NCBI GenBank assembly: GCA_022646745.1
Contig: CP060262.1
Span: 690,001 to 722,000 of the forward strand
Length of the DNA: 32,000 nt
From: Planctomycetales bacterium
GTDB lineage: Bacteria; 4484-113; JAFGCY01
Direction: 5' to 3'
Position numbers and translations under genes: made by a program. The notes under the pieces are model-generated. The model ran no database searches. It worked only from the letters and a program-made list of their open reading frames with translations, and was not told the DNA's origin. This document shows, in pieces, positions 266 through 29,523 of this stretch. The number at the start of each line of letters is the position of its first letter. The first letter of the stretch is position 1.

Positions 266-307
266 CTTCTTCCACTATTCGGACTATCAGAATTATTCAG
301 ACTTCTT
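266..307 (-). repeat. TCTGAATAG-type word block ending in TGGAAGAAG (reverse orientation)
   Basis: Reverse complement reads gaagaag tctgaataat tctgatag tccgaatag tggaagaag. The same block occurs at 13421-13456 and 29506-23 on the plus strand. Confidence 0.6.
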
Positions 308-326: not shown

Positions 327-476
327 CCCCTCCAACCTCAAAACTCCCCCACTCCAAACTAAAAAGGGAGGCCATTGCGGCCTCCCTCGTTGTCATTTCA
401 GTTCAGGTTGTAGTTTGGCGGTTTGAGCTTGGAATGAATCTCTCCAAACTCCGCACTCCAAACGCCCCACTCCAGC
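327..476. repeat. ACTCCAAA / TTTGGAG heptamer-word arms flanking the atpC terminator
   Basis: cccctccaacctcaaaactcccccactccaaact (327-360) is partly complementary to caggttgtagtttggcggtttgagcttgga (405-434). A further block tctccaaactccgcactccaaacgccccactccagc lies at 441-476. The same word family occurs at 26261-26334. Confidence 0.55.
361..386 (-). terminator. Rho-independent terminator of the atp operon
   Basis: Minus strand reads gggaggcc-gcaat-ggcctccc followed by ttttt, about 110 nt downstream of the atpC stop. Confidence 0.75.
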
Positions 477-964: not shown

Positions 965-3246
<2,282 letters not shown>

Positions 3247-6421: not shown

Positions 6422-6982
6422 TCAGGCCCCGGCGAGCGTACGCCGGTAGTTGAGCATCTGCTCCTTGAGGTCGTCCAGCCGGTGCGCCAGGGTCCCGTCG
6501 ATCACGAGGTGGTCGCCGAGCTGCACCTTGACCCCGCCGAGCACCGCCGGGTCCACCTTCTCGGTGACGCCGAGGTTCTCGTAGTCGCTGAAGCGCTTCA
6601 CGCCCGCCACGATGGCCTGCTTCTGCTCCGCGGAAAGCGGCACGGCGCTGACGATCGTGATCTCCTCGACACCACGGTGCATATCCGTCAGGTGGTCGAA
6701 GTAGCGCAGTGTATCCGGCAGGGCCAGGATACGGTTCTTGTCGATCATCAGCAGCACCAGCGTGAGCAGGGTGTCGTCAATCCGGCCACCGAGCTGGGAC
6801 CTGATCAGGTCCTTCTTGGAGGCACTGGGCACCTGCGGTGACCCGAGGAAGTCGCGGACCTGGCGGTCCTTGAACACATCCTCAAGCACCTGGGCCTGGG
6901 CGTCTACGGCCTCCATCGTGCCACGTTCGAGCGTCAGCTCGAACAGGGCAGTGGCGTACCGCTTGGCTACAGCTCCGAGCAT
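6422..6982 (-). CDS. atpH: F1 ATP synthase delta (OSCP) subunit
   Basis: 186 aa, N-terminus AKRYATALFEL. Sits between atpF and atpA, and its start lies 1 nt after the atpF stop. Confidence 0.85.
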   Translation of the reverse strand: MLGAVAKRYATALFELTLERGTMEAVDAQAQVLEDVFKDRQVRDFLGSPQVPSASKKDLIRSQLGGRIDDTLLTLVLLMIDKNRILALPDTLRYFDHLTDMHRGVEEITIVSAVPLSAEQKQAIVAGVKRFSDYENLGVTEKVDPAVLGGVKVQLGDHLVIDGTLAHRLDDLKEQMLNYRRTLAGA

Positions 6983-6983
6983 G

Positions 6984-7472
6984 CTAGTTGAGCTCCCTCA
7001 TATCGGAGATGAAGCTGGAGACCAGCCTGTCATGGCGGTCCTTGTCCAGGTCTTCCTTCATCACCCGCTGGGCGATACGGAAGGAGAGGTCGATCGCAGC
7101 GTTGTTGAGCTCGGCCAGGGCCTTCTCCTTCTCACGCTGGATGTCCTCCTGGGTACGGGCCAGCAGCTTCTCGCGCGCTTCTTCGGCATGTGCCTTGATT
7201 TCCGCGGCGGCCGCCTGGCCCTTATCCAGTGCTTCCTGCATCTTCGCCTGTGCTTCGGCGTTGATATCGGCCATGCGCTTCTCGTACTCAGCCTGCTGCT
7301 TTGCAAGCTCGGTACGGGCACGGTCGATCTCGTCGAAGGCGTCCTCGATACTCTTGCGGCGTGAGTCGATGACCTGGGGCACTGCCGTCCACAAGGGCTT
7401 CTTGAGCACAGCCATCAGGATCAGGAATCCAACGAGGCTGGCTACGATTACTGGCAGATTTGCTAGGTCCAC
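6984..7472 (-). CDS. atpF: Fo ATP synthase b subunit
   Basis: One N-terminal TM helix (LPVIVASLVGFLILMAVL) followed by a long charged coiled-coil region. Position is after atpE. Confidence 0.85.
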   Translation of the reverse strand: MDLANLPVIVASLVGFLILMAVLKKPLWTAVPQVIDSRRKSIEDAFDEIDRARTELAKQQAEYEKRMADINAEAQAKMQEALDKGQAAAAEIKAHAEEAREKLLARTQEDIQREKEKALAELNNAAIDLSFRIAQRVMKEDLDKDRHDRLVSSFISDMRELN

Positions 7473-11370: not shown

Positions 11371-13305
11371 CTAGACGTCGAAGTAGTCGTGCACTGTTTC
11401 AACCGCGTCCGATTCCCCGGCTTCCCCGGGTGCCAGCCCGCTTTCCGCCTGGCGGATGAGCTCGTCCGCCAGCTTGCCGAACACTTCCTTCGCGGCATGT
11501 GCGGCATCATTGCGGTAGCGTGATCCGACCTGCGGGTCGGACTCAATTGCATGGCGCAGCAGCTCAATCGCATGCACCTTGTGGTCATGCGCAAGCTTCA
11601 GCAGGGTATGGCGGGCCAGTTCCATGTCGGAAGGGGCCACCAGCCGCATGATGAGGCAGGATGTGTACCAGACGTCCTTCAGTACGCAGTACTTGAGAAT
11701 GATTCCGATCTTGCGCGGGCTGATCTTCTTCGGTACGGGCAGGCCGTTGCTGACGGCGAAGATGAAGTCTATGTAATCCACCACCGCATCCTCGCGGCTG
11801 GCGCCGTCCTTCTCCTCAGTGCTCGTGCCGTAGCTGAGCTTCTTTGAGGCCCCAGTGAACTTGACCACGGCCTTCTGCTCGATATGCCCGGCGTATTCCG
11901 CCATGAAGCTGTCGGAGACCCGCTCGCCACGGTAGTTGAAGATGTCGCCACGGGCCAGGAACAGGCCCATGATGCGCAGGGCGGCGATGTCCGTACCGGA
12001 CAGGGACAGCTCGCTGCCCTGGCGACCGGGTTCGGTCTGCACGAAGCTCGCGATGTAGCGGTCGTCCATCCACTTCAGCATGCCGACGCCGGGTTCGATG
12101 TAGACGGCGGGGATCACCGGCTGGCCGTTGCCATCCAGCGGGAAGCAGTTGATGTGCAGGCGCAGCATGGCCTCCATTGAGGCATGCAGCGCGGAGACCG
12201 TCAGCAGGCAGTCGCGCTTCGGGTCGCTGAACTTCTCCAGCTGCTCATCCAGCAGCACTCGCGCACTGGACCAGGCGCTGCGCTTGGCGTCATTGATCAG
12301 GGTCTGGTTGACGAAACTGGCGGCGCTTGACCAGTCAGATTCGACGAGTTTGCGGGCCTTTTCATCCAGCACGACCACCACATCCGCCGGGGCGGCTGCA
12401 CTGCCGGCCACAGCCGGGCCATCCTGCAGCCGCCGGGCGAGGCCGGCCACGCTATCCATCGACTCGAGCAGTTCAATCTGGCTGCGCTCAAGGTCGGCGC
12501 TGGCGCTGGCGAACTGTTCGCTCAAGCGGCGCAGGCGCGCAATCGAGTCATGCTGCTTCGGGGCCTTGCCGAGGTCCAGCGCGGACAGGCTGGCCAGTGC
12601 CTGGCCGTCCTGGCTGAGGCGCTTCAGTTCATTGGCGGGGTGCATCAGGCCCTGCATCACCGGGCCGAGGTTCTCGCTGGCAAGCACTTCCACCAGCCGG
12701 CGGGTGCGCTGGCCGACCTCCTGCTGCAGCTGGCGGCAGCGGGAGTATTCCTGCTCAAGCTGCTGCGGGTCGGCAGATCCAGTTGCAGCCGTCTGGTTAC
12801 CCGCGACCTGCAATGCTTCGCCGCTGTAGCGGCCACTGCGGTTTGAGTCGAAGGGCTTCAACTGGCCGGAAGCAAGGATGTGAATCCGGTTTGTCGGGTT
12901 GAGGATCCAGGCCGGGGCCACGATCTGGTTCGTGAATTCCTCCAGCAGCGCTTCATAGAGCGAATTACTGAGCAGCTGCAGGCAGAGCTTCTCGCCGGCG
13001 CTGTCCTTGACGGTCACGCTGTCAGCGACGGCGCCTGTCATCAGGAAGAGTTGCTGCTGCGGGTTGAGCATGTCAAAGCGCTCACGCAGCAGGCATTTCA
13101 TCAACTCAAGCCAGGCTGTGCGCAACTTTGTAGAAGCATCGGCGCCCGCCTTGCCCTCACGCTGGGCGGCCAGCTCGAGGAAGGCCTCACCGATGGAAGC
13201 CGCGGCCTCGCGCGGCACTCCATCCATCAGCTGCTTCAGGTGCTGGTTGACTGTCGTATCTGCGGCCATGTTTCCCAAAGGGTAACCGGATTGCGACTGG
13301 GCCAC
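11371..13305 (-). CDS. Hypothetical 644-aa protein (orphan)
   Basis: Long ORF with strong GC3 bias and no TM helix or signal peptide. The central region is Q/L/E/R-rich and probably coiled coil. The track start is GTG, with an alternative ATG at 13269. No family recognised. Confidence 0.75.
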   Translation of the reverse strand: MAQSQSGYPLGNMAADTTVNQHLKQLMDGVPREAAASIGEAFLELAAQREGKAGADASTKLRTAWLELMKCLLRERFDMLNPQQQLFLMTGAVADSVTVKDSAGEKLCLQLLSNSLYEALLEEFTNQIVAPAWILNPTNRIHILASGQLKPFDSNRSGRYSGEALQVAGNQTAATGSADPQQLEQEYSRCRQLQQEVGQRTRRLVEVLASENLGPVMQGLMHPANELKRLSQDGQALASLSALDLGKAPKQHDSIARLRRLSEQFASASADLERSQIELLESMDSVAGLARRLQDGPAVAGSAAAPADVVVVLDEKARKLVESDWSSAASFVNQTLINDAKRSAWSSARVLLDEQLEKFSDPKRDCLLTVSALHASMEAMLRLHINCFPLDGNGQPVIPAVYIEPGVGMLKWMDDRYIASFVQTEPGRQGSELSLSGTDIAALRIMGLFLARGDIFNYRGERVSDSFMAEYAGHIEQKAVVKFTGASKKLSYGTSTEEKDGASREDAVVDYIDFIFAVSNGLPVPKKISPRKIGIILKYCVLKDVWYTSCLIMRLVAPSDMELARHTLLKLAHDHKVHAIELLRHAIESDPQVGSRYRNDAAHAAKEVFGKLADELIRQAESGLAPGEAGESDAVETVHDYFDV

Positions 13306-13335
13306 ATATAGATATTGGATAAATCAGGGTGACGA

Positions 13336-13362
13336 GGGACCGGGGAACAGGGAATATGGGGG
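13336..13362 (+). repeat. GGGACC-type G-tract word block
   Basis: gggaccggggaacagggaatatggggg contains four G3+ tracts with loops of 3-5 nt. On the sense strand of the 644-aa gene it reads C-rich, 31-57 nt upstream of that gene's start. Confidence 0.7.
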
Positions 13363-13420
13363 ATGAGGTATGCGGGGTGGGCATGCCGTAGCGGCGGCAC
13401 TCCTGCCGCCGGAGGGCAAG

Positions 13421-13456
13421 TCTGAATAGTCTGAATAGTCTGAATAGTGGAAGAAG
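13421..13456 (+). repeat. 3 perfect tandem 9-mers TCTGAATAG followed by TGGAAGAAG
   Basis: tctgaatag tctgaatag tctgaatag tggaagaag, read directly from the sequence. Confidence 0.9.
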
Positions 13457-20262: not shown

Positions 20263-20278
20263 GGGTTCCACCTTTGTT

Positions 20279-20433
20279 GAGTGGTCAGTGGCCGGTGGTC
20301 AGTGGTCATTCAGAAACTGTTGGCAGAATCAGAAGCAGCGGAATCACCTGTTGTGCTTTCCGGCACCCTGGGCTGCTTCTCATTCTGATTCTCATTCTGT
20401 CGCTGGCCACTGACTACTGACTACTGCCCACTG
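20279..20433. repeat. ~155-nt imperfect palindrome built from heptamer and hexamer words (divergent promoter region)
   Basis: Left arm: gagtggt cagtggc cggtggt cagtggt ... cagaat cagaag cagc. Right arm: gctg cttctc attctg attctc attctg ... gccactg actactg actactg cccactg. Confidence 0.75.
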
Positions 20434-20439
20434 ATTAAG

Positions 20440-21126
20440 GTGCATATTCTATCGGCTGCTGGAGCGTGCTTTGCTACAATCGCGCCCGTGCCCGACGAAC
20501 AGCTGCAGATCCTGAGATGGAGCTTCAACCCCTGGAAGCAGGGGCTGGGCGGCTGGCGGCGGCCGCAGCTGGCCCTGCCGCTGTCGCTCATGCTCGCCGT
20601 GATCCTGAGCTGGAGCCTGACCGTGCCGAACTTCCCGCAGGGGTATGAGGCCCAGCTTGAGGGCGCACTGGCTGAGCTCGGGAATGCCCCGTTCGCCGTA
20701 CTGGATGGGCGGCAGCTCAGCCGCGAGCAGGTGGAAGGCCAGCTTGCACAGGTGCGCACGGCACGCGAGAGCTTCCCCGTGCAGTGGCTGCTCTGGGGAC
20801 TTGTCAGTGCAGTGCTGCTGCTGGGGATGAACGCCTCGCTCTACCTTCCGGTGCGCTATGAGCTGAATGAGCAGGGTGTGCGCGTGGAGTTCATGGGTAT
20901 GCCGAGCCTGCGCCGCTGGGAGCACTACCGCAACTTCTACCCGCATGAGCACCTGGTGCACCTGACTACCCTGCCCCGCCCAAGCGCGCTGGACCCCTTC
21001 CGCGGACACTCACTGATGTTCTCGGGGAATAGGGACTCTGTACTTGCTTATATTGGGAAGCATGTGGAAAGGCGGGATTCGAAGGGACCTGGGACCAGGG
21101 ACCAGGGACCTGCCAGTGGCCAGTAA
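20440..21126 (+). CDS. Hypothetical membrane protein (2 TM)
   Basis: TM segments LALPLSLMLAVILSWSLTV and WLLWGLVSAVLLLGMNASLYL, with high GC3. The track start is GTG at 20440, and an in-frame GTG at 20488 sits 7 nt after TGcTACAAT. The last ~14 codons and the stop lie inside the heptamer repeats. Confidence 0.65.
   Translation: MHILSAAGACFATIAPVPDEQLQILRWSFNPWKQGLGGWRRPQLALPLSLMLAVILSWSLTVPNFPQGYEAQLEGALAELGNAPFAVLDGRQLSREQVEGQLAQVRTARESFPVQWLLWGLVSAVLLLGMNASLYLPVRYELNEQGVRVEFMGMPSLRRWEHYRNFYPHEHLVHLTTLPRPSALDPFRGHSLMFSGNRDSVLAYIGKHVERRDSKGPGTRDQGPASGQ
20472..20490 (+). promoter_or_regulatory. Extended -10 (TGcTACAAT) 7 nt before an in-frame GTG, a candidate leaderless start
   Basis: TG 20472-73, TACAAT 20475-80, GTG 20488-90 in frame with the 20440 ORF. 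No SD. Confidence 0.4.
21084..21110 (+). repeat. GGGACCN x4 heptamer array (G3N4G3N4G3N4G3)
   Basis: gggacct gggacca gggacca gggacc, lying inside the 3' end of the 20440-21126 CDS. Confidence 0.9.
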
Positions 21127-21169
21127 TCAGTATTCAGTAGTCAGTGGCCAGTAGTCAGTGGTTAGTGGG
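21114..21169 (+). repeat. Eight tandem CAGTNNN heptamers
   Basis: cagtggc cagtaat cagtatt cagtagt cagtggc cagtagt cagtggt tagtggg. The TAA stop of the upstream CDS is inside the second unit. Confidence 0.9.
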
Positions 21170-21304
21170 CGGAGTGCTTTTTGCAAAACAGAGGAATCAT
21201 CTAAGCGGATAATCCCAATCGCCGCAGGGCGGCGCCGGTCCTTGATTTCTCTTTCGATCAACAATGCTTGGAATTCCCATCCCTTATCCCTGACCCAGGA
21301 ATCC

Positions 21305-21360
21305 AGAAACCCGATCCCGGAAACCCGAAACCCGATCCCCGGTCCCGGGTCCCCGGTCCC
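21305..21360 (+). repeat. GAAACCCGATCCC words followed by a GGTCCC (C-rich) heptamer block
   Basis: agaaacccgatcccggaaacccgaaacccgatcccc ggtcccgggtccccggtccc. This is the complement orientation of the 21084 block and ends at the -10 box of the next gene. Confidence 0.8.
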
Positions 21361-21378
21361 TGATAAACTCTTCCGATG
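21361..21378 (+). promoter_or_regulatory. Extended -10 (TGaTAAACT) 6 nt before ATG, a candidate leaderless start
   Basis: TG 21361-62, TAAACT 21364-69, ATG 21376. No SD. Confidence 0.45.
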
Positions 21379-22319: not shown

Positions 22320-24680
22320 ATGAAGCGTATCTATCTCGTTATGGCCGCGATCCTCGTGAGCCTGTTCGCCTTCAGCTGCGGAGGCGGATCAGGCCAGGTC
22401 GCGGACCCGAACACTCCGGCTGGAGGCAATGGGGACCAGAACGGTGAACTGTCACTGTCTCCCTTCACCGTCGAGGGTGAACGCGGCGTCAGCATAATCG
22501 ACGGCAAGCTGAACATCCGCTCCGCCGTGTCCGACTCTGAGCTTGATGCCGTGCTGGGCCGCTACAACTGCGCGGTGGACAGCCGCGACGGCAGCAAGGC
22601 CGTGATCGACGTGCCGCCGGGCACCGACCTTGAGGCCCTGTCCCGTGAGCTGGTGAAGGAATATGCGATCAGCGATGCCAGCCCGATCCACCGCATCAAC
22701 ATCCCGGTGGTGCTCGACAAGTTCGATGGCGGCAAGGTCTCCTCCTGGGTCCCGCAGGACCCCTATGCCTCGACCGAGTTCGTCGGCATCGGTGACAACG
22801 GCACCGACCTGGTGGCCGCACTGTTCCCCGGACAGGGTATGCCAAACGAGATCCTCGGCATGAACTCCGCCTGGGACGTGACCCTGATCGGCGCTGCCTC
22901 CGCTGCCCCGGTCAACATTGCGATCATCGACGCCGGCTTCTATGACTATTCAGTCGAGGCCCGCGCCGACCTTGATGCCACTCCAGGTACCGGCCAGATT
23001 GACGAAGTGAATTCAGGTTCCGTCGCCAGTGACGGCACCTTCGTGGCAGGCTACACCGCTGCTTCCTGGGACCTGTTTGACGACGGCGACCCGGGCACGC
23101 AGGACCTGCCTTTCCGCCAGACCGGTGAGAACCTGTTCGGCATGCTGGCCTCGCTGCACAACAACATCTTCTCCGTGTCCTTCGGCGACACCAGCGTGGG
23201 CGGCGCACCGCCGGATGGCACGATCGACAGCAACGAGATCTTCAACGAGGGCATCGCCGGCATGGTGCCCAACGCCAAGTACATGCTGATCAAGACCGGC
23301 GAGCCGAATGGCAACGCCTGGTCCTTCACCGACAACCACATCGCTGAGTCCATTGACCACGCGGTGGCGGCCGGTGCGAACATCATCCTGCTGGGCATGT
23401 TCGCCGAGGGCCCGGTCGGCGGCAGCGTCAGCACCGCCCTGGCGAATGCGGCTGACAACGACGTGCTGTGCATCGCACCCGCAGGTGACACCGTGCTGAG
23501 CTATAACGCCGGCACCTTCGACGCCCCGGCGGACATCGGCACCACGAGCTTCACCCCGGCCTCCGACCCGAACTGCTTCAGCGTGAGCAGCACCGGCTTC
23601 AAGCGCGTTGACATCAGCCTGCTTGACCCGCAGGATCCCGGCGCTGGCCCGATCCCGAACAACGGCCGCGCCTTCCGTCCGTTCAGCATTGCAGGCTTCA
23701 ATGAGAGCTACTTCGCGGTGCAGGCCTGCTCAAACACCAATACTGACATCTCCGCCCCGGGCTTCGGCATCGGCTGGGCGGTGCATCCGTATTCCGGCGG
23801 CACCTTCCCGGGACACAACTACAACCTGCAGTTCTCGCAGTTCGGCACCGCCCCGGCAGCGGCTTACGTGGCCGGCGCGGCAGCGATGGTGTACAAGAGC
23901 CTGAGCGCTGCCAACGGCACCCCGCCCTCCGATGACGAAGTGCGCCAGGTGCTGCTTGACAACGTGCATGACCCCGCGCTCTTCGACTTCACCGGCGTGT
24001 CCGGCGGCCTGCTGAACATCAGCCAGGCTGTCAACGCGGTTGCCGGTGGTGGTGTGAGCGGTCCCGCAATGGGCCTCTCCGTGCCGGCCGGCCAGCTCGT
24101 GCCCGCCACGCTTTTGACCACCTTCCAGCTGGCACCTGCCGTCACCGGCGGTACCGGCCCGTTTGACCTGTCCATCGACTGGGGCAACGGTGATGCCCCG
24201 ACCGTCGTCAACAACTGGGCCAGCAATGACCCGGTGGCACTGACCGGCGGCTGGGACACCCTCGGCCTGAAGACCGTGCTGATCACCGTCAGCGAGACCA
24301 CCGGCGACATGCGAAGCGCCAACCGCACCGTGGAGATCCCGGTCTACAACGCGATCACAAGCAACCTGACCGTGATGGGCCCGATCGACCCGCAGGACCC
24401 GGGCCAGGGCGAGAAGCTGTTCACCCCGGCGCAGCCGATCCAGGACGCCGTGACCTACACCTTCAGCGCCAACGTCGCCAACGTGTTCAACGGCAGCGTG
24501 AACGGCACCCCGAACAACCCGCAGTTCGGCTGGGACTTCGACGGTGACAACGTGATTGACAAGCCCGGCACCACTGTGGAGCATGCCTTCATCAATACCG
24601 GCAGCTTCAACATCAAGTTCATCGTGACCCAGGATGTGCTGCCCGACTTCGAGGTGACCCGTACGGTTCTGGTGAACTAA
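22320..24680 (+). CDS. Subtilase (S8)-like lipoprotein with degenerate catalytic residues and C-terminal PKD-like domains
   Basis: Lipobox LFAFSC-GGGSG and SD GGGGAG. S8 blocks NIAIIDAGF (Asp), SDGTFVAGYT (His position is Asp), IAPAGD (Asn position is Asp) and FGTAPAAAYVAGAAAMVY (Ser position is Ala). PKD-like C-terminus FGWDFDGDNVID...VEHAFINTGSFNIKFIV. Confidence 0.8.
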   Translation: MKRIYLVMAAILVSLFAFSCGGGSGQVADPNTPAGGNGDQNGELSLSPFTVEGERGVSIIDGKLNIRSAVSDSELDAVLGRYNCAVDSRDGSKAVIDVPPGTDLEALSRELVKEYAISDASPIHRINIPVVLDKFDGGKVSSWVPQDPYASTEFVGIGDNGTDLVAALFPGQGMPNEILGMNSAWDVTLIGAASAAPVNIAIIDAGFYDYSVEARADLDATPGTGQIDEVNSGSVASDGTFVAGYTAASWDLFDDGDPGTQDLPFRQTGENLFGMLASLHNNIFSVSFGDTSVGGAPPDGTIDSNEIFNEGIAGMVPNAKYMLIKTGEPNGNAWSFTDNHIAESIDHAVAAGANIILLGMFAEGPVGGSVSTALANAADNDVLCIAPAGDTVLSYNAGTFDAPADIGTTSFTPASDPNCFSVSSTGFKRVDISLLDPQDPGAGPIPNNGRAFRPFSIAGFNESYFAVQACSNTNTDISAPGFGIGWAVHPYSGGTFPGHNYNLQFSQFGTAPAAAYVAGAAAMVYKSLSAANGTPPSDDEVRQVLLDNVHDPALFDFTGVSGGLLNISQAVNAVAGGGVSGPAMGLSVPAGQLVPATLLTTFQLAPAVTGGTGPFDLSIDWGNGDAPTVVNNWASNDPVALTGGWDTLGLKTVLITVSETTGDMRSANRTVEIPVYNAITSNLTVMGPIDPQDPGQGEKLFTPAQPIQDAVTYTFSANVANVFNGSVNGTPNNPQFGWDFDGDNVIDKPGTTVEHAFINTGSFNIKFIVTQDVLPDFEVTRTVLVN

Positions 24681-24683
24681 TCA

Positions 24684-24715
24684 GGGATCTGGGACCAGGT
24701 ACCTGGGACCAGGGA
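24684..24715 (+). repeat. GGGACC-type G-tract word block right after the stop codon
   Basis: gggatct gggacca ggtacct gggacca ggga, starting 4 nt after the TAA at 24678-80. Confidence 0.8.
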
Positions 24716-24734
24716 ATCGAACCCGATTCAATGA

Positions 24735-24761
24735 GGGAGGCCTGCGGGCCTCCCTTTTTTT
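24735..24761 (+). terminator. Rho-independent terminator
   Basis: gggaggcc-tgcg-ggcctccc followed by ttttttt. The 8-bp stem is the same as in the atpC terminator at 366-386. Confidence 0.8.
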
Positions 24762-24795
24762 GCAGCCGGATTCCGGGGTGAGCATTGTTCAAGCT

Positions 24796-24829
24796 GGTCC
24801 CGGGTCCCTGGTCCCCGGTCCCTGTCCCC
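24796..24829 (+). repeat. GGTCCC-type C-rich word block abutting the folE -10 box
   Basis: ggtcccgggtccctggtccccggtccctgtcccc, an imperfect complement of 24684-24715. Confidence 0.8.
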
Positions 24830-24844
24830 TATAATTTCCCCATG
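24830..24844 (+). promoter_or_regulatory. TATAAT 6 nt before the folE ATG, a candidate leaderless start
   Basis: TATAAT 24830-35, ttcccc spacer, ATG 24842. No SD. The upstream in-frame extension only translates the repeat block. Confidence 0.5.
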
Positions 24845-25420
24845 TCCCCAAGCCCCATCGACAAGGCGCGCATCGAAGCCGCCGTGCGTGAGCTGATCGC
24901 CGCCCTTGGCGATGACGTGTCCCGTGATGGACTGCATGGCACGCCGGACCGCGTGGCCCGCATGTACACCGAGATATTCTCCGGCATGCATGAGGACCCG
25001 GGCGTGCACCTCGAGACCCAGTTCGACCAGGAGTTCAGGGAGCTGGTGCTGTTTCGCGACGTGAAGTTCTTCTCGATGTGTGAGCACCACCTGATGCCCT
25101 TCTTCGGATCGGCGCATATCGCCTACATCCCGGACGGCAAGATCACCGGACTGTCCAAGGTTGTGCGCAGCTTCAAGAGCCTTGCCGCCCGCCCGCAGGT
25201 GCAGGAGCGCCTGACCGGCGAGATGGCGGACCTGCTGATGGACAGGCTGAAGCCGATGGGCTGTGCCGTCGTCGTAGAGGCCCGGCATATGTGTATGGAG
25301 ATGCGCGGCGTGCGTGCTCCCGGCAGCCTGATCACCACCTCCGCGCTGCGCGGTGTGATCAAGGACCGGGAGATCACGCGCAATGAACTGTTCACGCTGA
25401 TTGCCGGGGGCCGCTCATGA
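24842..25420 (+). CDS. folE: GTP cyclohydrolase I
   Basis: Blocks GDDVSRDGLHGTPDRVARMY, FFSMCEHHLMPFFG and VVVEARHMCMEMRGV. Confidence 0.93.
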   Translation: MSPSPIDKARIEAAVRELIAALGDDVSRDGLHGTPDRVARMYTEIFSGMHEDPGVHLETQFDQEFRELVLFRDVKFFSMCEHHLMPFFGSAHIAYIPDGKITGLSKVVRSFKSLAARPQVQERLTGEMADLLMDRLKPMGCAVVVEARHMCMEMRGVRAPGSLITTSALRGVIKDREITRNELFTLIAGGRS

Positions 25421-26280
25421 GCGCAGCCGGCAGCTGGGAGCTGGGCAATGGGCTGGCCATCGACTGCAGCCGGCCACGGATCATGGCGATCCTGAACGCC
25501 ACACCGGACAGTTTCCACCCTGGCAGCCGCCTGCCTGACAACCGCGCGGCCTTGTCAATCCGCCTGAACAACCTGCTGCAGCAGCAGCCTGACCTGGTGG
25601 ACATCGGCGGCCAGAGCACACGGCCCGGCAGTGAGCGGGTCGGCGCGGACGAGGAACTCAGGCGCGTGGTGCCGGTGATCGAGGAGCTCAGGCGGCAGGA
25701 CCCGCATGTGCCGGTCACGATTGACACTTACCACGCCGAGGTGGCTGAAGCTGCGCTGGACAGCGGCGCCAATGCGGTGAATGACATTTCCGCCGGCCGG
25801 CTGGACCCTAAGCTCACCGAACTGGTGGCCCGGCGCGGCTGTGGATACGTGCTGATGCACATGCTTGGCACGCCGGAAACGATGCAGCAGGAGCCCTGCT
25901 ACAGCAATTGCCACCTGGAGATCCGCGAGTTCTTCGAGCGCGAGCTCGAGCGCCTGGAGCAGGCCGGGATCGCACGGGAGCGCATCGTGCTGGACCCGGG
26001 GATCGGCTTTGGAAAGCGGCTGGGCGACAACCTCGACCTGATCACCTGGGCGAAGAGCTTTCTGGAGCTGGGCCGGCCGCTGCTCTACGGCGTGAGCCTG
26101 AAGCGCTTCATCGGGGAGCTGTCCGGCGAGGAGGACACCGCGAACCGCGTGAGCGGGACTCTCGGCGTGATCTGGGAGCTGCTGAACCAGGGCGTGATGA
26201 TCCACCGCGTGCATGACGTGGCCACGGCAAGGCAGATGGTGAATGTGTGGATGGGGCTGCGAGGTTTGAGGTTGGAGTGA
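25417..26280 (+). CDS. folP: Dihydropteroate synthase
   Basis: Blocks IMAILNATPDSFHPGS, VDIGGQSTRPG, VNDISAG and LDPGIGFGK. Its ATG overlaps the folE TGA (ATGA). Confidence 0.92.
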   Translation: MSAAGSWELGNGLAIDCSRPRIMAILNATPDSFHPGSRLPDNRAALSIRLNNLLQQQPDLVDIGGQSTRPGSERVGADEELRRVVPVIEELRRQDPHVPVTIDTYHAEVAEAALDSGANAVNDISAGRLDPKLTELVARRGCGYVLMHMLGTPETMQQEPCYSNCHLEIREFFERELERLEQAGIARERIVLDPGIGFGKRLGDNLDLITWAKSFLELGRPLLYGVSLKRFIGELSGEEDTANRVSGTLGVIWELLNQGVMIHRVHDVATARQMVNVWMGLRGLRLE

Positions 26281-26334
26281 GGAGTTTGGAGGGACTGAAA
26301 ACTGCCTCCAAACTGCAAACTGCAAACTCCAACC
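26261..26334 (+). repeat. TTTGGAG / CTCCAAA heptamer-word hairpin spanning the folP stop
   Basis: G-rich arm gaggtttgaggttggagtgaggagtttggaggg (26261-93), loop actgaaaactg, C-rich arm cctccaaactgcaaactgcaaactccaacc (26305-34). Confidence 0.75.
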
Positions 26335-26335
26335 T

Positions 26336-26360
26336 GATTTCGGGAACCTTTCCCGAAATC
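26336..26360 (+). repeat. Perfect 10-bp hairpin
   Basis: gatttcggga-acctt-tcccgaaatc. Confidence 0.8.
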
Positions 26361-26426
26361 GCAGGTCTTACATACCGATGACACTGAAATGGTGTTGTCG
26401 ACCAGTAATTATTCCCCCTACAGCGG

Positions 26427-26452
26427 CCTCCGGGTAACCGGAGGTTTTTTTT
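26427..26452 (+). terminator. Rho-independent terminator of folE-folP
   Basis: cctccgg-gtaa-ccggagg followed by tttttttt. Confidence 0.8.
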
Positions 26453-26482
26453 GCCTGCCGGGTCCGGCAATCCAGGCAGGGA

Positions 26483-26511
26483 TTGAAACGGGCATCTGGA
26501 CTGGTTACAAT
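26483..26511 (+). promoter_or_regulatory. Sigma70-type promoter TTGAAA-N17-TACAAT
   Basis: -35 at 26483-88 and -10 at 26506-11, about 29 nt upstream of ATG 26540, which has a GGAGA SD. Confidence 0.55.
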
Positions 26512-26539
26512 CAATGCAGTACCAGCTCCGGAGATGCAC

Positions 26540-27514
26540 ATGAAAAAGTTCAGCGCAGCGATCCCGATTCTGTTCGTCCTGCTTCTGGCCTGCACATCAG
26601 CTACCAGTCGCGTTTCACACCAGGCAAGCGTGCAAGTGCAGGTGATTGCAAGCCCACGCGCCTTTGACCGTCTGGCGCAGAATTCAATAGCTGTAAAACC
26701 GCTGGACAGCCCGGGCAACCCATATGTCGGTGAATACTCCGCCATCGACCAGTGGATCCTTGAGAATGCCCTGGCGGATCCGTCAAAGCTGAATGAGCAG
26801 GCAGAAGGAGAAACCGGCGAGCAGGCTTTCGTCACGGAGGATGGCTACATGATCCCCGTATATGTACAGCTGCACCAGGCCGAAACACTGAAAAGCAGCG
26901 GCAAACTCACGGCACTGGCCGACCAGCCGGTTTATGCAATCCAGGCGAAAGGCGTGATCGACCCGGAGCTGCATGCGTCACACCGGGACAAGCTCACGCT
27001 GATCAAAGCGCAGTATCTCCCGCAGATCCCGGGCTGGCTGGCTGGCAACCCACCGCCGAACTCGATGTTCACGGACAAGGGCACTGTGGTCACCATTGGG
27101 CTGCCTGGTGAGGAAAGGAGGAAGAGTGGTGCCGCGCATGATTTTCCGGTAAGCCCACAGCCGTTCTATCTGTTCAGTGCTGATGGCATACAACTTGCCG
27201 GACCGTCAGACACTATCAACGCCCTGTTCGGTGAAGAGCGCTGGCTGCAGATCTATGATGAAATGTTGCAGCGCGGCTGGGCCAGCGCTGATTCCGGCCA
27301 GGGCTTCAGCGCCAGAACGCAGGAAACCCGTTCCGCCGGGGTGTACCAGTTCCGTAACGGAGAAGGCGAGATCATAGGCATCTTCAACTATGACGGGACC
27401 GAGCTGAGCGAGCAGACTGCCCCCGTGCGGGATGCGCACCTGTTCAGCTTCATAAACAGGACGATGCTGCCAGAGATGTACAAAGCCCAGCAGCGAATCA
27501 TCGGACAGATCTAG
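26540..27514 (+). CDS. Hypothetical lipoprotein
   Basis: MKKFSAAIPILFVLLLAC-TS lipobox, with GGAGA 5 nt upstream. The ORF-track start at 26483 lies inside the promoter. No family recognised. Confidence 0.7.
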   Translation: MKKFSAAIPILFVLLLACTSATSRVSHQASVQVQVIASPRAFDRLAQNSIAVKPLDSPGNPYVGEYSAIDQWILENALADPSKLNEQAEGETGEQAFVTEDGYMIPVYVQLHQAETLKSSGKLTALADQPVYAIQAKGVIDPELHASHRDKLTLIKAQYLPQIPGWLAGNPPPNSMFTDKGTVVTIGLPGEERRKSGAAHDFPVSPQPFYLFSADGIQLAGPSDTINALFGEERWLQIYDEMLQRGWASADSGQGFSARTQETRSAGVYQFRNGEGEIIGIFNYDGTELSEQTAPVRDAHLFSFINRTMLPEMYKAQQRIIGQI

Positions 27515-28683: not shown

Positions 28684-29381
28684 AGGCCGCCGTAGTCATC
28701 TTCCCCGGCTCGAACTGCGACCATGATGCCCTGCACGCCTGCGACAAGGTGATGGGCTGGACGACGCTGCCGGTCTGGCATGAGAGCACCAGCCTGAGCG
28801 GGGCTGACCTCGTGATCCTGCCCGGCGGGTTCAGCTATGGTGACTACCTGCGCTGCGGCGCCATCGCCGGTCGCAGCCCGGTGATGGAGGCCGTGAAGAA
28901 GCATGCCGGCAACGGCGGGCTGACGCTTGGGATCTGCAACGGTTTCCAGATCCTGATCGAGGCCGGCCTGCTGCCGGGAGCGCTGCTACGCAACAGCTGC
29001 ATGGAGTTCCGCTGCCGCCACATCTACCTGCGCACGGAGACCACGGACAGCCCGTTCACCCGTTCAATGCAGCAGCGTGAGGTGATCAAGGTGCCGATCG
29101 CGCATGGCGATGGCAACTACTTCGCCACGGAGAATCAGCTGGCTGAGCTGAATGAGCAGGACCGCATCCCCTTCCGTTACTGCAACGAAGCGGGGGAGAT
29201 CACGGCTGATGCCAATCCGAACGGCGCGCTGGAGAACATCGCCGGGGTGCTCAGCGAGGGGCGCAATGTGCTGGGCATGATGCCGCATCCGGAACGGGCC
29301 AGCGAGTCCGTGCTTGGCAGCGCCGATGGCAAGAAGCTGTTTGACAGCCTCGCCGTGGCCTACGCCGACGTCGGCTGGTAG
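28680..29381 (+). CDS. purQ: FGAM synthase glutaminase subunit PurQ
   Basis: [26 protein letters not shown], nucleophile block [10 protein letters not shown] and MMPHPER. Its GTG overlaps the purS TGA (GTGA). Confidence 0.9.
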
Positions 29382-29388
29382 GAAGACA

Positions 29389-29415
29389 GGGACCGGGGAC
29401 CAGGGAACAGGGAAC
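29389..29415 (+). repeat. GGGACC-type G-tract word block after the purQ stop
   Basis: gggaccggggaccagggaacagggaac, starting 8 nt after the TAG. Confidence 0.8.
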
Positions 29416-29423
29416 ACGTGGAG

Positions 29424-29466
29424 GTCAGGCCCATGGCCTGACAGGAGGCCAATCCCATGGATTGGC
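29424..29466. repeat. Two perfect 8-bp hairpins with cat loops
   Basis: gtcaggcc-cat-ggcctgac (29424-42) and gccaatcc-cat-ggattggc (29448-66). Confidence 0.8.
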
Positions 29467-29505
29467 AGGGGCTGCCATGCGAAAGTCTGGCAACAGTTTC
29501 ATTAG

Positions 29506-29523
29506 TCTGAATAGTGGAAGAAG
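29506..29523 (+). repeat. TCTGAATAG TGGAAGAAG word
   Basis: Identical 18-mer to 13439-13456. Confidence 0.85.

Follow-up and report, generated by a model that had tools for sequence, protein, structure and literature searches.

Tandem repeats with a 7-nt unit have been described from several groups of bacteria. The STRRs (short repetitive elements repeated in tandem) of cyanobacteria are dispersed, intergenic 7-bp repeats that form hairpins between the genes of operons (e.g. hupS-hupL) and, it has been suggested, make transcripts more stable. G-tract heptamers, GGGAATC in Xanthomonas and GGGGA(C/T)T in Nostoc PCC 7120, show an intergenic bias and a 0-50 nt polarity rule that holds irrespective of gene orientation and includes overlaps with stop codons, and their convergent inverted pairs are able to form stem-loops; arrays of four units are frequent, length and sequence vary between close relatives at conserved sites, ~186 arrays are present per Xanthomonas campestris genome, and the repeats are transcribed but of unknown function, circular dichroism (CD) having shown G-quadruplex (G4) formation by GGGAATC/GGGGAYT oligonucleotides (Rehm 2015, PMC4692102). 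The TAACTGA direct repeats of marine Beggiatoaceae, cyanobacteria and Bacteroidetes comprise a single unit type in 2-6 copies and are mostly intergenic, mainly right before start codons, with some overlapping the upstream stop codon and one indirect repeat reported; their stops in three frames and the repeat-encoded residues at non-conserved protein C-termini were noted at the time (MacGregor 2015, PMC4679880). Long simple sequence repeats (SSRs) with units of 5-11 nt occur in non-pathogens, most commonly as heptamers, with a sporadic phylogenetic distribution for which polymerase slippage has been proposed (Mrazek et al. 2007, as summarised in PMC4679880). Here, we analyse a 32,000-nt stretch (hereafter, the window) from a Planctomycetales bacterium (GTDB lineage Bacteria; 4484-113; JAFGCY01; assembly GCA_022646745.1, contig CP060262.1, positions 690,001 to 722,000 of the forward strand), in which two adjacent heptamer arrays at 21084-21169, one of GGGACCW and one of CAGTRRY units, reach into the 3′ end of a gene for a 228-aa membrane protein. 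These arrays probably belong to a lineage-wide population of heptanucleotide SSRs of the STRR/long-SSR class that encroach on gene ends, the protein tail and stop codon that they supply being by-products and any function, more tentatively, residing in nucleic-acid structure.

The GGGNATC/GGGGAYT repeats of Xanthomonas and Nostoc are probably the nearest match to the arrays, which share with them the intergenic bias, the polarity, the convergent inverted pairs and the length variation between relatives. A preliminary description of the locus, made from the sequence alone, had set the units apart from those of the cyanobacterial STRRs; they are not identical, but GGGGACC and GGGGATC lie one base from Nostoc GGGGA(C/T)T or fit the Xanthomonas-type GGGNATC. 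Units of GGGGATC occur at L002 14403-14519 and L006 2538 (L numbers denote the loci retrieved for comparison), and GGGACCW at 21084 keeps the G tract and the period and deviates at positions 5-7. The present arrays differ from the Xanthomonas and Nostoc repeats in belonging to another lineage, in their much higher density, in comprising several families without a G tract under the same behaviour and in occurring also in divergent intergenic regions, and G4 formation is here read from the motif. As in the STRRs, the units are tandem, dispersed, intergenic and 7 bp long, whereas the host is non-cyanobacterial with 62% GC and the units are related but non-identical. STRR1, CCCCA(A/G)T, complements GGGGAYT, and the CAGT core recurs in STRR3, CAACAGT. 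The complement of TAACTGA, TCAGTTA, resembles the TCAGTAG/TCAGTGG found here, and overlap with stop codons and non-conserved C-termini recur as well; in contrast, the units here are CAGTRRY or ACCACTG, the arrays at 21084-21169 follow the coding sequence (CDS) and inverted pairs are common. The long SSRs, as far as the summary cited above describes them, have the heptamer unit in common with our arrays but form a statistical class without defined architecture, paired arms or polarity. Free of spacers and indels, in excess over chance, mostly intergenic and variable in unit number between relatives, the arrays have the properties of heptanucleotide SSRs and STRRs; what is new is the host lineage, the density, the obedience of several coexisting unit families to a single rule, and the replacement, shown by comparison, of terminal codons of housekeeping genes.

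Heptamer arrays at the end of a conserved membrane-protein gene

The open reading frame (ORF) that begins mechanically at GTG 20440, and more likely at GTG 20491, crosses the first array and ends ...RRDSKGPGTRDQGPASGQ* (asterisk, stop) at a TAA (21124-21126) within the second CAGT unit, as originally noted, the repeat-encoded tail peptide of the 228-aa protein being ...DSKGPGTRDQGPASGQ. The first array consists of the units GGGACCT GGGACCA GGGACCA GGGACCT and is followed by tgc and then by CAGTGGC CAGTAAT CAGTATT CAGTAGT CAGTGGC CAGTAGT CAGTGGT TAGTGGG, strictly in phase. The earlier reading of the former as GGGACC heptamers fitting a G4 motif (four G3 tracts at 7-nt spacing, 21084-21107), and of the latter as eight tandem CAGT-type heptamers after a 3-nt gap (21114-21169), holds on re-examination. 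Tandem Repeats Finder (TRF) reports 21083-21110 as period 7 with 4.0 copies and 90% matches, and 21114-21161 as period 14 with a score of 68, with 0% indels in both arrays. Stop codons were correctly said to lie in all three frames of the CAGT array (TAG 21138; TAA 21124 and TAG 21163; TAG 21152); the GGGACCN arrays hold none in any sense frame.

The stretch is 100% identical across 8.7 kb to NCBI contig JAGRNS010000031.1, and an independent ENA contig is 99.9% identical, with the sole mismatch at 20499, outside the arrays. Short-read metagenome contigs do start or stop inside heptamer arrays (L001 at both ends, L025 at its 3′ end), making the arrays assembly break points and raising the question of whether assembly or sequencing could have created a false CDS end. 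However, the same sequence is present in two more assemblies, one of them from an independent sample, and the arrays are in phase, indel-free and recur at orthologous sites in a metagenome-assembled genome (MAG) with a 1.88-Mb contig. Such an artefact is effectively refuted.

A Pfam search of the 228-aa protein gave no matches, and 36 homologues were found. In their alignment, family conservation reaches the motif HV.(K/R)R, encoded near 21083, and orthologues at ~70% identity terminate 3-8 residues past it (KREQ*, KRGE*, RRESEN*). Because the orthologues stop so soon after the motif, the last ~13-14 residues of the protein are, judged from this alignment, a non-conserved, array-encoded extension, and the shorter orthologues thus bear out the proposal that the arrays furnish the C-terminus and the stop codon. 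In L002 (MAG AC1.30), the opening unit of a (CAGTGGT)x7 array supplies the orthologue with a TAG stop; in L006, the opening unit of a CAGT-type array supplies a TGA; and the orthologue in L005, a 96%-identical genome, ends ...KRSGST* ahead of a different array, (GGTTTCG)x4.

In the array-free relative L003 (5520-5581), the orthologous protein also has an extended, non-conserved tail, ...KRNSKEAGGSSQEQKSRKGQ*. Its DNA, AGCAAGG AGGCGGG AGGGAGT AGTCAGG AGCAGAA, scored below the array threshold and is possibly the decayed remnant of a heptamer array that the CDS has taken in.

A clade-specific population of period-7 arrays

Arrays were called by a tolerant period scan, with 30 dinucleotide shuffles as control. 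The window contains 10 period-7 arrays against a shuffle mean of 0.07, and other periods give at most 3 arrays, except period 14, a multiple of 7. L002 holds 16 arrays within 20.6 kb, L005 holds 7 and L006 holds 9, and the density in the sampled loci is ~1 array per 1.3-3 kb. As much as 87% of the array bases fall within the intergenic 10.5% of the window, coding overlap is confined to CDS tails, and ~7/12 intergenic regions of at least 80 nt bear arrays; none occur in two divergent promoter regions that lie immediately beyond the window. The unit families are GGGACCN/GGGATCN, CAGTRRY, TTTGGAG and GGTTTCG, with their complements. Unit positions 5-7 are variable, the CAGT or GGGA core is kept and the 7-nt phase is strict, with superperiods of 14 and 21 nt (TRF). 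The distribution is clade-specific: arrays are present in the window, L001, L002/L007, L005 and L006, and absent from the 69%-identical orthologous locus L003/L004 and from the more distant relatives L008-L018.

The genome had been described as clearly not cyanobacterial, which agrees with the related MAGs, deposited as UBP7 or Planctomycetales and none as cyanobacterial; the related HKST MAGs come from a saline activated-sludge time-series study. The deposited UBP7 label does not fit the phylum now so coded, with genomes of 0.83-1.39 Mb and 36-53% GC in Ca. Bimafiota vs 62% GC here and a 1.88-Mb contig in a relative.

Other gene ends and turnover between genomes

The folP gene (25417..26280) likewise terminates inside heptamer words: as reported, its end, ...GLRGLRLE*, lies within TTTGGAG-type words, GAGGTTT GAGGTTG GAGTGAG GAGTTTG (TTTGAGG/TTGGAG words). 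The same end reads GLRGLA* in L005 and L002, GLRGLRLE* in the window and GLRGISGE* in L006, where the TAG lies within CAGTAGT; by this comparison, GLRGLA* is the ancestral end, supplanted by array sequence in the window and in L006. The ends of the S8 protease (VLVN*) and of the purQ product (YADVGW*) are conserved, and the array begins 0-7 nt downstream. At the other end of folP, a weak period-7 pattern, GCAGCCG GCAGCTG GGAGCTG GGCAATG, in the first codons (window 25423-25453) is kept in L005 (5779-5809) and is either a chance resemblance or an old array captured at the N-terminus.

Between the window and L005 (~96% identity), the alignment is interrupted precisely where the arrays lie. Ahead of folE, the GGTCCC array counts 4 units in the window and 3 in L005; in the array block ahead of the 237-aa gene, the counts are 9 and 13, respectively; and downstream of the 228-aa gene and of folP, the two genomes carry arrays of different unit families. 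Array sites persist in the same intergenic regions between genomes sharing only ~70% protein identity. Since same-strain assemblies are identical, array change is seen at the species scale, not at the strain scale, and turnover is not fast among strains; the copy-number comparison suggested in the preliminary description therefore yields whole-unit differences from L005 (4/3, 9/13) but none among same-strain assemblies. A metagenome scan for the locus returned only relatives at 37-38% identity.

Two genes for four-helix-bundle proteins of the 23S_rRNA_IVP family (PF05635; E 1.5e-34 and 4.8e-36) lie in L005 at 1190-1555 (+) and 6672-7097 (-), each between a G-rich arm and a complementary C-rich arm, and are absent at the window sites (~21170-21298 and 26292-26340). 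The L005 arms fold as a ~37-bp stem enclosing one whole PF05635 gene (z -5.5), a layout like that of ribosomal intervening sequences (IVS), outside rRNA, and a third PF05635 gene follows folP in L002 (16481-16882). The association may be coincidental, because most intergenic regions bear arrays.

Placement, polarity and pairing of arms

In a hand tally across four genomes, an array that is G-rich on the sense strand lies -43 to +28 nt from the stop codon in 13/13 plus-strand cases, and the nearest array before the start is C-rich on the sense strand at ~11/11 plus-strand and 5/5 minus-strand genes, C-rich arrays often ending at a -10-like box 6-10 nt before the start codon. The arms of an intergenic region also match each other in sequence: unit complementarity of at least 6/7 was found in 8/20 same-region vs 12/146 different-region arm pairs (Fisher p 0.0006; loci partly orthologous). 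Fold z-scores against shuffles reach -7.2 for 20272-20440, -8.2 for 24675-24835, -4.5 for 26255-26345 and -6.8 for L002 14280-14545. The segment 21337-21364 of the C-rich block downstream of the 228-aa gene is the complement of the array at 21084-21111, and the predicted fold pairs the GGGACC array (21084-21110) with this GGUCCC array (21337-21364), the interior being non-palindromic; the predicted stems at 24675-24835 and L002 14280-14545 enclose a canonical terminator. Should the arrays have a function, these predictions would make a paired-arm stem the best-supported candidate.

Origin of the arrays and competing explanations

We propose that the arrays would gain and lose units by replication slippage and expand until they met sequence under selection. 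At dispensable C-termini, such as those of the 228-aa protein and of folP, the last codons would be overwritten by the array, and translation would then proceed to the first in-frame TRR triplet, which a CAGTRRY array would offer within three units, since 3 does not divide 7. More tentatively, each G-rich arm might pair with the C-rich arm of its intergenic region as a long stem, in a 3′ untranslated region (UTR), in a read-through transcript or as a DNA cruciform, enclosing a terminator or promoter region; such a hairpin could serve in RNA stabilisation, in processing or as an insulator, and would compete with a G4. We regard the tail and the stop as by-products because the stop arithmetic is automatic and the GGGACCN arrays are stop-free.

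Several points weigh against this explanation. The sample comprises ~85 kb of mostly orthologous loci in four genomes, and its counts are not independent. The rule of a G-rich array after the stop held at only ~2/5 minus-strand gene ends, and some convergent regions have arrays in the G-rich orientation alone (L002 16000-16423, 20051-20370). The fold of the region of the 228-aa gene itself (21076-21375) is only modest (z -2.5), and its CAGT array (21114-21169) has no local complementary partner. A permutation test of RNAduplex energies with 70-nt intergenic arms was not significant (p 0.2-0.36); its windows on the arms were poorly positioned, G-rich and C-rich arms pair in whatever combination, and it was superseded by the unit-level complementarity test. 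Four same-strain assemblies of another array-bearing region showed no variation, and the slippage and stem-loop steps are what we infer.

The preliminary description had suggested that the arrays act as universal stop pads that also create variable tails when copy number changes. The arithmetic of this idea holds at 21084-21169, where the ORF always stopped within the CAGT array when 0-8 copies of the first unit were simulated (product of 221-242 aa); the L002 and L006 orthologues likewise take their stop from the first CAGT-type unit, and tails do differ between close relatives, with neighbouring arrays differing by whole units. As a purpose, however, neither the stop pad nor the variable tail is supported, and it is most improbable that the arrays are kept for it: GGGACCN arrays, the commonest type abutting stop codons, are stop-free in every sense frame; most genes, the S8 protease and purQ among them, retain their own conserved stop, the array starting only after it; roughly half of the arrays are upstream of genes or far from stop codons; the tails show zero conservation; and stops in three frames are automatic for a 7-nt unit with TRR, as stated before for TAACTGA (MacGregor 2015). 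Retention of the GGGACCN arrays as G4 elements, which in the non-template DNA or at the mRNA 3′ end would make transcription pause or terminate, hold up ribosomes or attract a G4-binding protein, is likewise unlikely. In its favour, all 7 canonical G4 motifs of the window fall in intergenic arrays, with 2.1 +/- 1.4 expected anywhere in the window, arrays of exactly four tracts recur just past stop codons or upstream of minus-strand starts (window 21084, 29389; L002 2270, 14286; L006 2538), and the GGGAATC/GGGGAYT repeats combine a preference for four units with G4 formation shown by CD (Rehm 2015). Yet most unit families (CAGTRRY, TTTGGAG, GGTTTCG) share placement and polarity without a G3 tract, and the number of in-phase G tracts is broadly distributed in this small sample (four in 7 arrays, three in 20 and more in 6; range 3-17). 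GGGACCW is, moreover, self-complementary via CCWGG: with its G-quadruplex option, ViennaRNA predicts a hairpin (minimum free energy -13.9 kcal/mol), not a G4, for the isolated 27-mer 21084-21110, and the GGUCCC duplex is preferred in context, whereas a G4 is chosen for 29380-29425.

That the arrays are purely neutral slippage debris, with placement, polarity and complementarity arising from tolerance and from the way in which arrays are generated, e.g. inverted duplication, is a distinct if minor possibility. The replacement of unit families between 96%-identical genomes, the lack of arrays in sister lineages with the same genes and the halting of arrays exactly where conserved sequence starts would all be expected of debris, and the Xanthomonas and Nostoc repeats have been studied without a function being found; but the arrays persist at the same sites despite only ~70% protein identity, and strict polarity with matching arms is hard to obtain by slippage alone. 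A role as multimeric binding sites for a lineage-specific RNA- or DNA-binding protein reading the 7-nt register is very unlikely. The phase is strict and indel-free, positions 5-7 vary while the CAGT/GGGA core stays, three units (21 bp) make two helical turns, TRF finds superperiods of 14 and 21 nt, and S1, Csp or CsrA were proposed to act on the related TAACTGA repeat (MacGregor 2015), whereas at least four unrelated unit families behave alike, which argues against one sequence-specific reader, and no candidate binding protein was identified. A more elaborate version of the stem idea, suggested by the L005 layout described above, in which array pairs, a G-rich and a C-rich arm bracketing each intergenic region, are genome-wide modular stems that insulate or process transcription units (e.g. 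as RNase III substrates) and double as docking or exchange sites for 23S-rRNA-IVS-like cassettes, appears quite unlikely.

Other classes of repeat were considered and rejected. Repetitive extragenic palindromic (REP) sequences are hairpins of intergenic 3′ UTRs that are able to stabilise the upstream mRNA, and the arrays may resemble them in position and folding, but an assignment to REP, to bacterial interspersed mosaic elements or to miniature inverted-repeat transposable elements fails in that no palindromic unit recurs among the arms, which consist of tandem heptamers differing in family and length. Contingency SSRs of phase variation, which lie in the 5′ CDS or promoter spacer and turn genes on or off, likewise change by slippage and shift the reading frame; here, however, the arrays sit at the 3′ tail, 0-8 copies leave the conserved protein intact, a frame shift alters only a short tail and could not silence the gene, and the neighbouring genes are housekeeping ones (folP, purQ, atpC). 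The repeats are contiguous, without unique spacers, and do not represent clustered regularly interspaced short palindromic repeats (CRISPR). Programmed frameshifting was considered as an explanation and also rejected.

Other features of the window

The arrays and associated features of the window are compiled in Table 1. Between the two array blocks downstream of the 228-aa gene, a hairpin, CGCCGCAGGGCGGCG, followed by CCGGTCCTTGAT, is kept across genomes with ~70% protein identity (L002 near 10753, L006 near 10745), the flanking arrays turning over, and could represent a weak terminator or some other RNA element. Boxes resembling -10 elements, TGCTACAAT (20472-20480), TGATAAACT (21361-21369) and TATAAT (24830-24835), lie 6-10 nt before GTG 20491, ATG 21376 and ATG 24842, respectively, and none of these three starts has a Shine-Dalgarno sequence. 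The genes at 20491, 21376 and 24842 may be leaderless, and the mechanical calls at 20440 and 24785 probably set the ORF starts too far upstream.

Table 1. Heptamer arrays and neighbouring features discussed in the text (window coordinates).
Feature	Position	Strand	Evidence and context
CDS, conserved uncharacterised membrane-protein family	20491..21126	+	ORF list, 36 homologues, alignment
(GGGACCW)x4	21084-21111	+	G-rich heptamer array within CDS tail; G3N4G3N4G3N4G3 fit; sense frames stop-free
(CAGTRRY)x8	21114-21169	+	unit 2 supplies TAA stop 21124-21126; stops in all three frames
GC-rich hairpin CGCCGCAGGGCGGCG between two array blocks	21220..21234	+	conserved in L002 and L006
C-rich heptamer arrays GAAACCC/GATCCCN/GGTCCCN, ~9 units	21299..21364	+	ends at -10-like TGATAAACT before ATG 21376; 13 units at L005 site
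Left arm (CAGTGGT-type array) in the divergent intergenic region that precedes the CDS	20275..20308	+	fold 20272-20440 z -7.2
CCACTGA-type array, right arm, complement of 20275-20308	20403..20437	+	TRF, period scan
GGGAYCW array, first base = last base of S8-protease stop codon	24680..24715	+	upstream of intrinsic terminator 24733-24756
GGTCCCN array, complement of 24680-24715	24796..24830	+	adjoins TATAAT 24830-24835 before likely folE ATG 24842; 4 units vs 3 in L005; fold z -8.2
TTTGGAG-type array overwriting folP last codons and stop	26261..26291	+	period scan, end comparison
CTCCAAA/CTGCAAA array, complement of 26261-26291	26306..26335	+	TRF, period scan; fold z -4.5
GGGACCN/GGGAACA array x4	29389..29416	+	begins 7 nt past purQ stop; G4-motif fit
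Degenerate GGGACC-type array	13331..13375	+	upstream of minus-strand gene 11371..13305; C-rich on that gene's sense strand
TTTGGAG-type arrays downstream of atpC	330..474	-	flank complementary segment and terminator hairpin

A 20-mer, AGTCTGAATAGTGGAAGAAG, occurs in three intergenic regions, at 266-285 (-), 13437-13456 (+) and 29504-29523 (+), with 0 occurrences expected by chance, and is preceded at the second of these by a perfect 9-mer tandem, AGTCTGAAT x3.3 (13419-13448). By exact matching among the fetched loci, its 15-mer core was found only in same-strain copies of the first site. A segment of ~1 kb (26456-27512), including the 343-aa ORF 26483..27514 (no Pfam match), is absent from L005, where sequence matching window 26341-26455 joins directly to that from 27513 onwards. 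Scans of the window for Rfam families and for tRNA and tmRNA genes gave no matches.

Implications

For genome analysis, the arrays break short-read assemblies and move annotated CDS ends by a few codons, and studies of orthology or structure cannot rely on the C-terminal tails of housekeeping proteins such as folP. Direct slippage rates could come from the 9-year series of sludge samples at the plant where the related HKST MAGs originated. To Xanthomonas, the heterocystous cyanobacteria and the Beggiatoaceae, an uncultured lineage of high GC from saline activated sludge is now added as a host of heptamer repeats with quadruplex motifs and hairpins. Because the unit families share one rule, placement and polarity appear to depend on the 7-nt period and on strand composition rather than on G4 potential alone, and this shared placement rule is a useful constraint on any function of the heptamer repeat class.

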